From a bacterium (lineage in GTDB: Bacteria; Sysuimicrobiota; Sysuimicrobiia; Sysuimicrobiales; Kaftiobacteriaceae): a stretch of 49,617 nt of DNA. The notes beneath the pieces are model-generated. The model was not told the DNA's origin and ran no database searches. It saw only the letters and a program-made list of their open reading frames with translations. Below are positions 37,013-40,838 of this stretch, piece after piece (position 1 is the stretch's first letter; each line of letters begins with the position of its first letter). The position numbers and the translations under genes are program-made. The stretch lies in the NCBI GenBank assembly GCA_035693805.1, contig DASSGA010000169.1, forward strand, positions 1-49,617, read 5' to 3'.

Positions 37013-37459
37013 CTAGATTCCTTGCCCGCCGCCGCGCCGCCCCACTCCCACCCGGTCCCGTACGAGGCGGATCACCTCGTCCGTGAATTCGGTGGTCGAG
37101 GCATCCCCACCACGATCCACGGTGCGCACCCCGCGGCTCACGGCGTGGAAGGTCGCCTCGTAGATGGCGCGGGAGGCGCGCTGCGAGGCCGGGTCGTCCA
37201 CGTAGGCGAGCATCGCCGCACCGGCCAGGATCATCGCCATCGGGTTGGCGATGTTCCCGGCCCGCCAGCCGCGGCGCAGTGCCGTGCGGGGCTTCCGCGA
37301 GCACGGTGCGGACGCGCATCGCGTCCGTGCGGGCAGCGATAGGTCGAACGCCACGAACTCGAGCGGCGCGCCCGTCACGCCCGGCTGGAGCACGCGGAGC
37401 GCCTCCGCCAGGAGTTCCTGCCCCGTTTCGTCGCCTTCAAGGATCACGACGGTGGCCAT
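37013..37459 (-). pseudogene. isocitrate/isopropylmalate dehydrogenase family remnant with large internal deletion
   Basis: The N-terminal ~40 aa (MATVVILEGDETGQELLAEALRVL...PLEFVAFD) and C-terminal ~80 aa (AGNIANPMAMILAGAAMLAY...VRTVDRGGDASTTEFTDEVI) of the family are joined in frame. About 200 central residues are missing. Confidence 0.6.
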
Positions 37460-38010
37460 ATCAGTTCCGCCTCCACGCACAGCGTGAGGAGCGCGCGGCC
37501 CTGTCCGAGGCGCCCCGCCCAGCTCGACCGATGCCGCACCGCGACGGTCTCCCGCCGCACGATCCGCAGGCCGGCCGCGGCGTACGACGGGACCAGGTCG
37601 GCTGCCTCACCGTACAGGACCGAGACGTTGACCAGCACGCGCAGTCGGCCGCCCGGCCGCAGCAAGCCCGCGATCCGGGCCAGTGTGGCTGGATCACCGC
37701 CGGTCACCGCCCGCAGCAGGCCTCCCCAAGGATACTGCACGTAAACCTCAGCGGCCATGCCGCGCAGCGATCCGGGGAGCGCTTCCGCCCGCCCACGGAC
37801 GAAGATGAGATTCGGGGCGCCACCCCGCGCGGAGGTGGGGCGGGCCCGCCGCGCGACATGTCGCGCGGCGTCAAGATTGGCGTCGATGCCGATGCAGACC
37901 CACTCCGGCCTCGCCCGCGCCAAGCGGAACAGCCACCGCCCGTCTCCCGTCCCCACGTCGATAACCACGTGCCGGCCGGCGAGTCCGCCGGCATCGCTGC
38001 ATACCTCCAT
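37444..38010 (-). CDS. SAM-dependent methyltransferase resembling the KamB/NpmA 16S rRNA m1A1408 family
   Basis: VIDVGTGDGRWLFRLA, IGIDAN, GGAPNLIFVRGRAEALP, YPWGGLLRAV, RPGGRLRVLVNV and SSWAGRLGQGR are collinear with KamB/NpmA as I recall them. AGGAGGTG SD. Confidence 0.55.
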   Translation of the reverse strand: MEVCSDAGGLAGRHVVIDVGTGDGRWLFRLARARPEWVCIGIDANLDAARHVARRARPTSARGGAPNLIFVRGRAEALPGSLRGMAAEVYVQYPWGGLLRAVTGGDPATLARIAGLLRPGGRLRVLVNVSVLYGEAADLVPSYAAAGLRIVRRETVAVRHRSSWAGRLGQGRALLTLCVEAELIWPPS

Positions 38011-38012
38011 CT

Positions 38013-38056
38013 CCGCACCTCCTGCCGTGGTGGTGTGAACCGGCAGGACGGTGCGG
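38013..38056 (-). promoter_or_regulatory. 15-bp GC-rich hairpin sequestering the methyltransferase SD
   Basis: mRNA reads CCGCACCGUCCUGCCG-GUUCACACCACCA-CGGCAGGAGGUGCGG-AG-AUG. The SD AGGAGGUG is entirely in the 3' arm. One bulged C. Confidence 0.55.
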
Positions 38057-38150
38057 AGGCCCGCGCGGGCAGATGAATGCCCGGGCCGACGTGCCAGGAC
38101 GTGCGCAGGCGAAACAGAGTCGGGACCCCCGCGAGCGGCGGGAGCCGGAG

Positions 38151-38180
38151 GATCTAGCTGGTGATTGTGCTAGCGGTCAA
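38151..38180 (-). promoter_or_regulatory. candidate promoter TTGACC-18-TAGATC for the methyltransferase unit
   Basis: Minus strand reads CGTTGACCGCTAGCACAATCACCAGCTAGATCC. It would give a leader of about 130 nt. Confidence 0.3.
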
Positions 38181-38227
38181 CGTCAACCGGGGTGCATCGC
38201 GCCTCCAGTATAGGAAAAGCCCTCCTG

Positions 38228-38236
38228 TGCTACAAT
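38228..38236 (+). promoter_or_regulatory. extended -10 element TGCTACAAT upstream of tRNA-Arg
   Basis: Ends 11 nt before the mature tRNA 5' end. Confidence 0.45.
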
Positions 38237-38247
38237 GGGGCGGGCGC

Positions 38248-38323
38248 GCGCCCGTAGCTTAACGGACAAAGCCACGGCCTTCGAAGCCGTTGAGTGGGGG
38301 TTCGACTCCCTCCGGGCGCGCCA
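38248..38323 (+). tRNA. tRNA-Arg (anticodon UCG), CCA encoded
   Basis: Acceptor GCGCCCG/CGGGCGC, D arm GCTT-AACGGACA-AAGC, anticodon arm ACGGC-CUUCGAA-GCCGU, T-loop TTCGACT. Confidence 0.9.
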
Positions 38324-38330
38324 GTGAGTA

Positions 38331-40838
38331 TCAGACCTCGCGGACGTTGGACAGGACCGGCTCTCCCAGCACGCGCCGTCGCAGGCGGACCTCGGTGCCC
38401 TCCTGCTCATGGGAGACCGCGACCTCGTCCACCATCCCCTCCATCAGCCGGAACCCGCGCCCACGGTCCGTCCCCCGGGTGGGCCGCCACTGGCCGAAAT
38501 CCCGGACGGTGATCGTCACCTCATCGGCCGCACGGGAGACGTCCAGCTGGAGCTGGCCCCCTGAGGGGCCGTAGGCATGCTCGACTGCGTTGCTGATCGC
38601 TTCGCCGGTCGCCACCAGCAGGGGGAACGCCGCCTCCGGCGCGATCCCCTGCTCGGCGAACCACCTGCGCATCGCCTGGCGAATCACCGCGGCGGAGGAG
38701 GGCTCGGCCGACACGCGCAGGGTCATCCGGTCGCCCTGAGGCACCACGTGCAGAGCGAGCACGGCCACGTCGTCGTGACGCGCGGACGCGGGCAAAACCT
38801 TTTGCAGCAGCTCGTCGAGCAGCACCTCGGGACCTCGGGCATGCGCCCCGAGGGCGACCTCGCGCAGTCGCAGGAGCGCCTCCTCCAGGGGCACGTCGGG
38901 ATGGTCAACCAGGCCGTCGGTGTAGATAAGGAGTGTCGAGCCGGGCCGGAGACGCGCTTGCCCCTCGCTGAACGCCGCGTTCCGGTTCACGCCCAGGGGC
39001 AGCGCATGGCCATCTTCGAGGGACGTCGCCGTCCCGTCCGGAGTGATGATGACCGGGGGCAGGTGCCCGGCCCGGATGTAACGGGCCGTGAGCGTGCTCA
39101 AGTCGAGCAGGACGTACGCGAGGGTGACGAGGTTGGGCGCCCCAAGCCGCTCGCTGAGGAGATTCAGTCGCTCTGCAACCGCCTGCGGGCGGGCATCCTC
39201 CAGGGCATACGCGCGGAGCGCGTTCCGAAGCTGCCCCATGATCGCAGCGGCGGGGACGCCGCGGCCGACGACGTCACCCATGACCAGAGCGAGGTTCCCG
39301 TCGCCGAGCTCGAACACATCGTACCAGTCCCCACCCACTTCCCCCGTCCCCGAGGCCAGGTACCGTACGGCCAGGCTGATGCCGGGGATGTCCGGCATGT
39401 GTGCTGGGAGCAGGCTGCGCTGCAGGGTCGCGGCCGTGCTCCGCTCCCGTTCGTAGAGCAGCGCGTTCTCCAGGGCCACGCCGGCCTGGCGGGCGAGCGA
39501 CTCCACCTGCGTCTGCACGTGGTCGTCGAAGCGGCCGGGCTCGGGGTGCCCCAGCAGGATGGCGCCGAGCGATTGCGCGCTGCGCGAGACGACCGGCACG
39601 GCCAAGTAGGAGACAACCGGCACGTGGCCCTCCGGAAGCCCCCGGAAGAGCGGATGCGTGCGGATGTCGTCGCTCCGGACCGTTCCCTGCGCCCGAAACG
39701 TCGGGGCAAACAGCGGGGTGAGGTGCAGGCGGTCGAGGTGCTGGAATGCCTCGCGGGGATACCCGGACACCTCCCACTGCTGGTACTCGGTGGGGTCCGG
39801 CTCGCCGCGCCCGCGGAAGAAGCCGGCAAAGGCCACCCCGCCCCCGGCGAGACGGGCGGCGGTTTCGGCGATCGCCTGCATCACCTCTTCGATGCGTCCC
39901 GCGCCGTGGATGTCGGTGGCCACCTTGACCAGCGCGGAGAGCGATTCCGCGCGCCGCTCCTGCGCTTCGAACTGCCGCACGTGCTCGATCGCCAGGGCGA
40001 TGCGATCCGCCACGAGTCGCAGCAGTTGGGCGTCGTCGGCCGTGAAGATCCTGCGCTGCAGCGTGCCGACATGCAGCACGCCGACGACTCTCCCCTCTAC
40101 GATCATCGGCACGCCGAGGAGCGAGCGGACGCCCTTCTCCCGAAGGATGGGATTGAGTACGTGGTCCGGCCGGACGTCATCCAGGATCACGGGCCGGGCT
40201 TCGGCGGCGATCCGTCCGGCGAATCCGCCCCCGAAGGGGATGCGCGCCCCGCGCTCCACCTCTTGCTCCAGCCCGACCGCGGCCCGCACCAGCAGCGTGT
40301 CTTCCGTCTCCGTGCCTCGGGCCTCCTCGCGAAGGAGCACCGCGGCAGTATCCGCGGCAAGGATCCGGCGCGCATTCGTCAGCAGATCCGTGAGCAGCCC
40401 ATCCAGCTGCTGCGACGCCAGGGGCGCCTCGCCCACAGCCGTCACAGCACGCAGGCGCTTCGCCATCTCTTCGGCCCGTCCTCGGGCGGCGGTCTGTGCT
40501 TGCCTGGCCGCCCGCAGCCGGCCCGCCATCAGGGCAGTCAGGAACAGCACGGCCGCAAACATGACGACGACCAGCGGGGCCGCGCTGACGCTGGGCAAGG
40601 AGGTGGGCGGAACGACGACGTAGAGCCCGACTGCCAGCGAGAAGGCGACCGCGAGCAGCCCCGACGCCAGGCCGCCGGCGTAGCCGGCGACCGCCGTGGA
40701 GAAGACAAAGATGAAGAGTGGAACGCCCGTGTTGCCGGGGAGCCTCGTCACGACCCCCAACGCGACCAGGGCCGCCGCGAGCGTCACGGCCGCGGCCAGG
40801 CCGAATGGGAGCAGGAACGCGCGAGACCAGACCGGCAC
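38331..40838 (-). CDS. multidomain signalling protein: DUF4118-like membrane module, two GAF, PP2C/SpoIIE phosphatase, RsbW-like HATPase
   Basis: SpoIIE core GGDWYDVF...LVMGDVVGRGVPAAA...TDGLVD. C-terminal anti-sigma-kinase-like EAISNAVEHAY...ITVRDFGQW...GRGFRLM. GTG start. Confidence 0.85.
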   Translation of the reverse strand: MPVWSRAFLLPFGLAAAVTLAAALVALGVVTRLPGNTGVPLFIFVFSTAVAGYAGGLASGLLAVAFSLAVGLYVVVPPTSLPSVSAAPLVVVMFAAVLFLTALMAGRLRAARQAQTAARGRAEEMAKRLRAVTAVGEAPLASQQLDGLLTDLLTNARRILAADTAAVLLREEARGTETEDTLLVRAAVGLEQEVERGARIPFGGGFAGRIAAEARPVILDDVRPDHVLNPILREKGVRSLLGVPMIVEGRVVGVLHVGTLQRRIFTADDAQLLRLVADRIALAIEHVRQFEAQERRAESLSALVKVATDIHGAGRIEEVMQAIAETAARLAGGGVAFAGFFRGRGEPDPTEYQQWEVSGYPREAFQHLDRLHLTPLFAPTFRAQGTVRSDDIRTHPLFRGLPEGHVPVVSYLAVPVVSRSAQSLGAILLGHPEPGRFDDHVQTQVESLARQAGVALENALLYERERSTAATLQRSLLPAHMPDIPGISLAVRYLASGTGEVGGDWYDVFELGDGNLALVMGDVVGRGVPAAAIMGQLRNALRAYALEDARPQAVAERLNLLSERLGAPNLVTLAYVLLDLSTLTARYIRAGHLPPVIITPDGTATSLEDGHALPLGVNRNAAFSEGQARLRPGSTLLIYTDGLVDHPDVPLEEALLRLREVALGAHARGPEVLLDELLQKVLPASARHDDVAVLALHVVPQGDRMTLRVSAEPSSAAVIRQAMRRWFAEQGIAPEAAFPLLVATGEAISNAVEHAYGPSGGQLQLDVSRAADEVTITVRDFGQWRPTRGTDRGRGFRLMEGMVDEVAVSHEQEGTEVRLRRRVLGEPVLSNVREV

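Follow-up and report, generated by a model that had tools for sequence, protein, structure and literature searches.

The closest described relatives of the system reported here are the attenuators of the erm and cat type (ermC, ermB, cat86, cmlA), in which the Shine–Dalgarno sequence (SD) and start codon of a resistance gene lie in a hairpin, a short leader open reading frame (ORF) upstream is read by the ribosome, and control involves nascent-peptide arrest and a 1:2 / 2:3 / 3:4 relay of alternative pairings. The 16S ribosomal RNA (rRNA) methyltransferases, by contrast, are usually treated as constitutive: we know of no described induction mechanism for those that protect against aminoglycosides, and found none in the literature searched. 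Nor did that literature yield a description of a leader ORF, an SD-locking hairpin or readthrough gating for genes of the Kam/NpmA type, which is no proof of novelty. Here we describe the leader of such a gene in a stretch of 49,617 nucleotides (nt), contig DASSGA010000169.1 of GenBank assembly GCA_035693805.1, from a bacterium of the family Kaftiobacteriaceae (phylum Sysuimicrobiota); we refer to the whole analysed stretch as the window. We consider it highly probable that a hairpin in front of this gene is a conserved, gene-specific translational lock, forming one module with a ribosome-read mini-ORF further upstream.

Like the erm and cat leaders, this one combines a putative rRNA-methyltransferase resistance gene, an SD and start codon held in a hairpin, and a short upstream ORF that the ribosome would read. 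Unlike them, its ORF has only 4–7 codons, is leaderless or nearly so, stops 83–243 nt before the methyltransferase start and is closed by tandem stops together with stops in the other frames; the 1:2 / 2:3 / 3:4 relay was not found, and the signal we propose is aminoglycosides and the misreading of stops, where erm and cat use arrest by a nascent peptide. Measured against erm-type control, a leader ORF and SD sequestration both appear to be present here, and in our fold predictions the alternative-pairing relay does not.

Several other leaders bear comparison. The event at a leader stop, often one involving UGA and release factor 2 (RF2), is what is sensed in tnaC and speFL, which arrest at the stop, and in prfB, which autoregulates at a UGA, as in the proposal below. 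They sense tryptophan, ornithine and RF2 level via Rho or frameshifting, and to our knowledge none of them uses tandem stops or an SD-locking hairpin of this kind. The armZ (PA5471) leader peptide PA5471.1 of Pseudomonas aeruginosa likewise links a short peptide to the induction of an aminoglycoside-resistance function by ribosome-targeting drugs, aminoglycosides among them, but by transcription attenuation (terminator/antiterminator), through stalling within a 13-codon ORF and with an efflux-pump anti-repressor as the target (PMC13041342). Sgm/KgmB and ErmC (Kojic et al. 1996, cited in PMC6804068) are resistance rRNA methyltransferases controlled translationally via their own 5′ leaders; there the protein binds the messenger RNA (mRNA) at an rRNA-like motif, whereas here nothing points to protein binding and a mini-ORF is conserved. 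In the rpoS leader regulated by DsrA, and in the ROSE and fourU thermometers, the SD is also paired with an upstream arm; we found no partner RNA of the DsrA kind, and the present stem is far too stable for a thermometer.

The lock hairpin, which we call H3, and the gene behind it comprise the following features.

37444..38010, minus strand: gene of the Kam/NpmA family of 16S rRNA (adenine1408-N1) methyltransferases, 188 amino acids (aa), assigned by PF24675.
38011..38027, minus strand: 3′ arm of H3, including the SD AGGAGGUG (38023..38016); GGAGGUG is invariant in the alignment.
38028..38040, minus strand: predicted loop of H3, GUUCACACCACCA; homologous loops vary in length, with a recurrent RACCAG(A/G).
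38041..38058, minus strand: 5′ arm of H3 (anti-SD), CUCCGCACC-G-UCCUGCCG, from the fold; homologues have CCUCC..GCCUYCCUGC.

The minus-strand sequence of 38058..38008 runs CUCCGCACC-G-UCCUGCCG / GUUCACACCACCA / CGGCAGGA-GGUGCGGAG / AUG, and RNAfold pairs 38058..38041 with 38027..38011 in a stem of 17 base pairs (bp) with one bulged G (38049) and a 13-nt loop (38040..38028). An earlier note on this DNA had placed the SD in a 15-bp stem with a bulged C, ending 2 nt before the AUG. The hairpin and the burial of the entire AGGAGGUG are borne out at that place, whereas the bulge proves to be a G, and two additional pairs (C-G and U-A) carry the stem to the last base 5′ of the AUG. For H3 alone the predicted folding energy is −35.7 kcal/mol at 37 °C, rising to −23.9 at 60 °C and to −9.4 at 90 °C; for the whole 181-nt leader it is −92.4 kcal/mol (z = −4.5 against shuffles, none of 200 of which equalled it).

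As a background we took 736 ORFs of the same 2.38-Mb metagenome-assembled genome (MAG) with GGAGG at SD distance and a coding-type GC content at third codon positions, and computed for each the free energy of keeping the SD unpaired within −70..+20. In the background this opening cost is 4.3 kcal/mol at the median and 13.0 at the 99th percentile; at 15.3 kcal/mol the methyltransferase SD ranks fourth of the 736. Second in the same ranking, at 16.8 kcal/mol, is a candidate 785-aa ORF on another contig of this genome (C222:7925..10282, plus strand), the SD of which lies in a perfect 15-bp hairpin, GGCGGUCCUCCCGUC-ACAGUGAC-GGCGGGAGGACCGCC.

Two further hairpins are predicted upstream of the lock, the nearer of which the earlier note had also seen.

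38058..38087, minus strand: H2, a second hairpin that adjoins the lock on its 5′ side and belongs to a branched structure in the predicted fold.
38124..38146, minus strand: H1, a GC-rich hairpin, GGCUCCCGC-CGCUC-GCGGGGGUC, followed by a G-poor, C/U-rich stretch, from the predicted fold.

Most homologous leaders have a GC-rich hairpin at the H2 position, with no conservation of its sequence, and most, not all, have an H1-like hairpin with a pyrimidine tract.

Elsewhere in the phylum, homologues of the methyltransferase gene from other genera each have an equivalent SD-sequestering hairpin, with the consensus CCUCC..GCCUYCCUGC - loop - GCAGGGAGGUGGAG..AUG and outer stems that diverge in sequence. 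A covariance model built from 19 sequences (R1) was run on all 94 species genomes of the GTDB phylum. No genome gave more than one strong match, and the 19 matches above 36 bits all stand immediately 5′ of a Kam methyltransferase gene, intact or decayed; weaker matches fall at unrelated sites. One protein search and twelve contig look-ups in public assemblies added 11 further loci with the hairpin. The loci compared number 34 overall, and we grouped them into 17 clusters at 70% leader identity. Local folds range from −24 to −42 kcal/mol in all 34, whether the start codon is ATG, GTG or TTG, the hairpin of the window being the most stable, and opening the SD in the homologous leaders costs 8–16 kcal/mol, mostly within the top 1–3% of the background. 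The hairpin is absent from the Kam homologues of Chloroflexota and Dehalococcoidia that we examined.

Stem conservation and covariation in homologous leaders, the check that the earlier note had proposed, came out in favour of the hairpin. Across 28 distinct sequences aligned to the model, pairing in the inner helix stands at 91%, and seven pairs have changed on both sides, values reached by none of 500 shuffles; when control alignments are slid, pairing falls to about 50%. Two helix positions are mostly G·U or U·G on the sense strand, and because such pairs are mismatches on the opposite strand, selection acts on the sense RNA. SD sequestration is conserved and specific to this gene, and so very likely regulatory.

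Aligning the homologous leaders also brings out an upstream block, the conservation of which exceeds that of all the sequence from there to the hairpin. Its order is TTGACN, 17 nt, TATACT, 6–10 nt, ATG, 1–4 variable codons, (CGN/AGG) CCN TTY GGY, and TGA NNN TGA/TAG: a promoter-like element followed by a mini-ORF that ends in tandem stops. In the window the block and the stops behind it take the following form.

38207..38212, minus strand: −10-like hexamer TATACT, 9 nt 5′ of the mini-ORF AUG; its geometry makes it the likely promoter for the entire leader.
38183..38197, minus strand: mini-ORF ATG CAC CCC GGT TGA (MHPG-stop), a shortened version, recognised by homologue alignment.
38177..38179, minus strand: second in-frame stop, TGA, one codon past the first; TGA-NNN-TGA/TAG in homologues.
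38170..38172, minus strand: TAG closing the +1 frame, 4 nt past the tandem stops; an early TAG/TAA in most loci.
38154..38156, minus strand: TAG closing the +2 frame; an early TAG/TAA/TGA in 32/34 loci.

The mini-ORF occurs in 34/34 loci, 83–243 nt upstream of the methyltransferase start (in the shortest leaders its stop is 83–99 nt away), with the consensus MRPFG and a length of 4–7 codons; other versions are MKPFG, MHSFG, MNRFG, MSAFG, MQFFG, MLPFG, MHFFG, VTHPFG, MLPQPFG and MPPRPFG. Its length changes solely in multiples of three, and its codons vary synonymously (Arg as CGC/CGT/CGA/AGG, then CCC/CCG/CCT/CCA, TTT/TTC and GGT/GGC). The first stop is always TGA, and FG-TGA is invariant except in the window and in one other locus (L011); exactly one variable codon later comes the second in-frame stop, TGA in 28 loci and TAG in 6. 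A 24-nt mini-ORF pattern matched 16 times in the 94 genomes, compared with once for the reversed control, and 12 of the matches are at methyltransferase loci (one of them a pseudogene), the other four being chance matches inside unrelated genes. The earlier note had reported no convincing leader peptide; none of the erm kind indeed adjoins the hairpin, but this tandem-stop mini-ORF further upstream had been missed.

A TATACT-like hexamer precedes the mini-ORF start by 6–10 nt in about 30 of the 34 loci (by 9 nt in 20, by 6 nt in six and by 10 nt in four), and TTGACN often stands 17 nt further upstream. Because the distance from hexamer to AUG is so short, the mini-ORF would be leaderless or nearly so, its transcript probably starting 0–3 nt before it, and the same promoter geometry suggests that mini-ORF and methyltransferase gene share a transcript. 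A promoter had earlier been placed lower, at TTGACC-18-TAGATC, with a leader of about 130 nt. Those letters are present, but their role as a promoter is improbable, because the spacing of the boxes is not conserved (0–18 nt in homologues) and both are stop codons of or behind the mini-ORF: the supposed −35 box TTGACC is the second mini-ORF stop plus CC, and the supposed −10 box TAGATC contains the TAG of the +2 frame. The conserved TTGACN-17-TATACT before the mini-ORF instead gives a leader of about 190 nt. A sigma-70 scan of 37400..38800 found no match, with a rule (A2/T6 plus 9/12) that also misses the TATACT promoter; no intrinsic terminator was found in the same interval, H3 being followed by AUGGAGG and no U run. 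The region of the TAG at 38154..38156 could form a weak CUAGC/GCUAG hairpin with 38169..38173.

Divergent from the leader lies a tRNA-Arg(TCG) gene (38248..38323, plus strand), and the same tRNA neighbour is found in G003, a genome of the same genus, and in L074. Its extended −10 element, TGCTACAAT, overlaps an opposite-strand TTGTAG at −35 distance from the leader TATACT, so that the two promoters would share DNA (38228..38323 plus, 38207..38236 minus).

The reading frames between mini-ORF and hairpin are patterned as well. In most loci the +1 and +2 frames are closed by TAG/TAA within 1–20 nt after the tandem stops, while the frame of the mini-ORF itself is free of further stops to the end of the 5′ arm of the hairpin in 34/34 loci and 17/17 clusters; in two loci it has a single stop, 5 or 8 nt short of the methyltransferase start. 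Mini-ORF and methyltransferase share a frame in 23/34 loci and 11/17 clusters (binomial P = 0.008, with one third as the expectation), and the distances from first stop to start in these loci, of at least ten different lengths, are without exception multiples of three.

A related stop syntax occurs in Kam homologues of other clades (L037, L058–L120), in which at least 26 of 79 distinct metagenome loci have conserved in-frame stops near the N-terminus, between the N-terminal hairpin and the S-adenosylmethionine (SAM) motif. They take the forms VDVG-TAA/TGA/TAG, GFT-TAG-GGY-TGA, NP-TGA-CGT-TAG and RR-TGA-TCC-TAA, and the codon before the first stop is usually GGC/GGT, as in the mini-ORF; the sequence of stop, one codon, stop is common to these N-termini and to the mini-ORF end. 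Enzyme family and stop syntax near the 5′ end of the frame are shared, but in the other clades the stops lie inside the enzyme N-terminus and no SD hairpin was seen, whereas in this phylum the stops sit on a separate mini-ORF and the enzyme keeps its own hairpin-locked SD and start.

The gene had been called rRNA-methyltransferase-like from its sequence, and profile searches agree: it scores 155.2 bits on PF24675, a family of the Kam/NpmA type for which the curated cut-off is 60 (E = 1.9e-45; 148.9 bits in a genome search). The NCBIfam models KamB, WarA and NpmB also match, below their exact-protein cut-offs, and the nearest PDB structures (4rwz, E = 4e-27; 5bw5; 7ehf) are all of A1408 methyltransferases. 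Its product is a member of the Kam/NpmA family, with A1408 methylation and aminoglycoside resistance as putative functions. The SAM-binding motif DVGTGDG and the tryptophans W95 and W164 are invariant in the homologue alignment; two conserved tryptophans hold the flipped adenine in the NpmA and KamB structures, and we take W95 and W164 to correspond to W107 and W197 of NpmA. The N-terminal β-hairpin extension (VVRGRxV...) is missing, leaving a 16-residue gap against nine relatives. The metagenome relatives L041 and L042 (94% and 90% identity) share this short N-terminus, as G003 probably does, judged by the length of a masked stretch. Because the NCBIfam WarA model also starts at the SAM motif, the loss need not abolish activity; WarA confers broad-spectrum aminoglycoside resistance, according to the title of a 2024 paper cited in PMC12406665. 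At a dN/dS of 0.24–0.40 against close relatives, the protein is still under constraint.

How might such a lock be opened? The model that we find best, and hold tentatively, somewhat short of an even chance, is that ribosomes reading through the tandem stops melt the hairpin, the stop cluster acting as the gate and the hairpin as the lock; its transcription start, the translation of the mini-ORF, the readthrough trigger and the aminoglycoside signal are each steps that we infer. By default, ribosomes would translate the mini-ORF and all be released, whatever their frame, and essentially no enzyme would be made, because a stem of about −25 to −40 kcal/mol would keep the SD and AUG of the methyltransferase gene inaccessible. 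Under induction, stop misreading of the kind shown by aminoglycoside-bound ribosomes would let some of them pass both stops, continue along the stop-free frame of the mini-ORF and unwind the hairpin. Where the leader is in frame, as most are, such ribosomes would run on into the methyltransferase frame; in the out-of-frame leaders, that of the window included, their passage would merely expose SD and AUG for fresh initiation. Once methylated, ribosomes would no longer bind the drug, readthrough would drop and the gene would shut itself off.

Published work fits such a loop. Aminoglycosides cause miscoding and cut the efficiency of RF2-dependent release about 30-fold (PMC8266624), while A1408 methylation blocks drug action and alters nonsense readthrough, and Kam/Arm methyltransferases carry fitness costs (PMC12406665). 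A self-limiting loop would follow from these properties together. That this soil-bacterial phylum has built a sensor for the aminoglycoside mode of action, in which a collapse of fidelity opens the gate and methylation closes it, is a slightly more tentative proposition than the opening of the lock by readthrough; the literature searched gave no published case of it.

Several observations weigh against readthrough as the key. Once the conserved early stops are set aside, the openness of the mini-ORF frame has a P of only about 0.09, and because the leaders are related the frame counts are not independent, so that the statistics are modest and phylogenetically entangled. The methyltransferase is out of frame in 11/34 loci, the window among them, and a fusion product therefore cannot be the general mechanism. 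With the stop cluster and hairpin excluded, the leader interior has no coding periodicity, which argues that it is not a normally translated extension, and we rejected a reading of the leader as hidden coding sequence on the same ground. Two serial stops would make readthrough rare even with drug present, and an elongating ribosome would expose the SD only briefly, with the hairpin able to fold again behind it. Pure readthrough gives no reason for the invariant Phe-Gly ahead of the stop, which would suit an arrest peptide just as well, and the mini-ORF of the window has no Phe codon.

An arrest peptide is at the centre of the alternative that survives best, which we nevertheless rate as unlikely: a ribosome impaired by bound drug or in some other way would dwell on an arrest-type mini-ORF (RPFG-UGA) or its stop and raise expression indirectly, by protecting the mRNA from 5′-end decay, by blocking Rho loading on the C/U tract or by refolding, with the hairpin merely setting a low rate of translation. 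The near-invariant Phe-Gly-UGA, the position of the mini-ORF at the extreme 5′ end and the G-poor pyrimidine tracts after H1 in most leaders all suit a sensor of stalling, as do the slowing of translocation by more than 800-fold and of RF2 release by about 30-fold under drug (PMC8266624). Precedents exist in the response of PA5471.1 to aminoglycosides (PMC13041342) and in Erm mRNA stabilisation, which is discussed in PMC5118997. Yet the predicted cost of opening the SD is the same in 19/19 leaders when the mini-ORF plus 12–18 nt is masked, the anti-SD arm has no consistent alternative partner and no canonical terminator was found. Stalling would also leave the second stop, the stops in all frames, the open frame and the excess of in-frame loci unexplained, and a stem of about −25 to −40 kcal/mol would still block initiation.

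Somewhat less probable again is that no inducing signal exists, and that the hairpin simply keeps a costly catalytic enzyme always low, while the stop cluster keeps ribosomes loaded at the 5′ end off the structured leader or stabilises the mRNA. A constitutive throttle of this kind would agree with the fitness costs of Kam/Arm enzymes (PMC12406665), with the small amounts needed of a catalyst, with our finding of no switch structure and with frequent decay of the gene in the phylum, which suggests weak or intermittent selection. A very strong SD beneath a very stable stem is, however, an odd way to set a low constitutive level where a weak SD would do, and the conserved codons of the mini-ORF, its tandem stops and the preserved frame point to a signal read by the ribosome.

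Doubtful, and a little more so than the throttle, is a factor acting in trans to open or bind the hairpin, be it the methyltransferase itself in autoregulation, a small RNA pairing with the 5′ arm, or an RNase III or helicase. In its favour are the semi-conserved loop nucleotides (RACCAG), and the loop of the window contains UCACACCA, which would match 16S positions 1406–1413 around the target A1408. Against it, the 16S-like loop is missing even from the 94%-identical relative L041, the 94%-complete genome holds no complement longer than 14 nt to 5′ arm and loop, and the mini-ORF is left unexplained; Kam enzymes, moreover, recognise the assembled 30S surface and not a hairpin, as in the NpmA–30S structure. 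Translational autoregulation has a precedent in the 16S methyltransferase Sgm (Kojic et al. 1996, cited in PMC6804068).

Very improbable, finally, are the two triggers suggested in the earlier note that would make the hairpin itself the sensor, an RNA thermometer or a small-molecule riboswitch: the SD is sequestered with no adjacent leader peptide, as they would have it, but the stem is predicted to persist at 60 and even 90 °C, there are 0 matches to 4227 Rfam families and no conserved aptamer, and sequence outside the stem is not conserved, the interval between mini-ORF and hairpin being variable and so shrinkable that whole sections are gone in short leaders. In an Rfam 15 scan of 37400..38800 with E up to 1, the sole match is the neighbouring tRNA.

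Other candidates were tried and set aside. In thermodynamic predictions with constrained folds, a ribosome placed on either of the tandem stops leaves SD accessibility unchanged in 19 leaders, and folding without the 3′ arm gives the anti-SD arm no conserved alternative partner, both at odds with an erm-type relay. A DNA palindrome or operator at the hairpin fits poorly with frequent G·U pairs, since the complementary strand would have A·C mismatches in their place, and an operator reading of the GGTTGACGTTGACC box was dropped in favour of stop codons, which better fit its TGA-to-TAG change and multiple-of-three insertions and deletions. Neither L041 nor other homologues preserve the loop sequence UCACACCA that could mimic the 16S target site (the MAG contains no 16S gene for comparison), and a trans RNA was rejected because the genome lacks a complement of more than 14 nt. 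Selenocysteine or another recoding of UGA is contradicted by a second stop that is UAG in one clade and UAA in other clades, and by UGA as the end of ordinary genes here, the methyltransferase gene included. The mini-ORF does not mark a wider regulon, its pattern finding only methyltransferase loci and the four chance matches among the 94 genomes, and a look-alike in contig C186 of the same genome is due to chance.

Within this family of leaders the copy in the window looks like a derived variant. Its nearest leader relative, L168, which belongs to the same 70% cluster, has MRPFG and an in-frame distance of 177 nt; the window has MHPG, with the Phe codon gone, and 175 nt, an offset of 2 nt that puts the gene out of frame, and its enzyme is without the N-terminal hairpin. 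The copy may be on its way out, though it has the most stable hairpin among the loci and a coding sequence that is still constrained. Decay of the gene is frequent across the phylum, with internal deletions, truncations, a fusion to a dehydrogenase remnant or loss of the 3′ arm, and the module is present in about a quarter of the 94 genomes; it seems to be under intermittent selection. At L019, L074, L136, L137 and L151 the methyltransferase copy has decayed, and mini-ORF and promoter are still recognisable.

Directly downstream of the gene, an ORF at 37013..37480 (minus strand) consists of the two ends of an isocitrate/isopropylmalate dehydrogenase, N-terminal and C-terminal, joined to each other (matching Pfam Iso_dh at 287–348 only). 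At L008, in the same genus, the methyltransferase ORF runs into the C-terminal remnant of this dehydrogenase, and at L042 the remnant is almost wholly gone. The closest genome relative (L006, G003:C94) has runs of 93 and 57 N in the hairpin/start region and the gene; the 93-N run looks like masking and not an assembly gap, because its length equals that of the equivalent stretch in the window; the 3′ half of the hairpin is unreadable there. Past the tRNA, 38331..40838 (minus strand) encodes an 835-aa protein with DUF4118, two GAF domains, a SpoIIE/PP2C phosphatase and a HATPase_c_2 anti-sigma-kinase domain, to which we saw no link from the methyltransferase module.

In practical terms, new assemblies can be searched for the module with R1 and the mini-ORF pattern, and hairpin and mini-ORF together make a compact natural part for reporters of translational fidelity. 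Resistome surveys may mis-score genes of this kind, as silent where the start is locked or as pseudogenes where stops interrupt the frame. The conserved two-part leader indicates tight natural control over the expression of this environmental branch of the family. If the readthrough model is true, the drug would be sensed via the error that it causes, with negative feedback built in, a new sensing principle that could extend to other genes with conserved early stops; taken together with the stop-interrupted relatives in other phyla, readthrough would then be a general natural induction signal for this resistance family.

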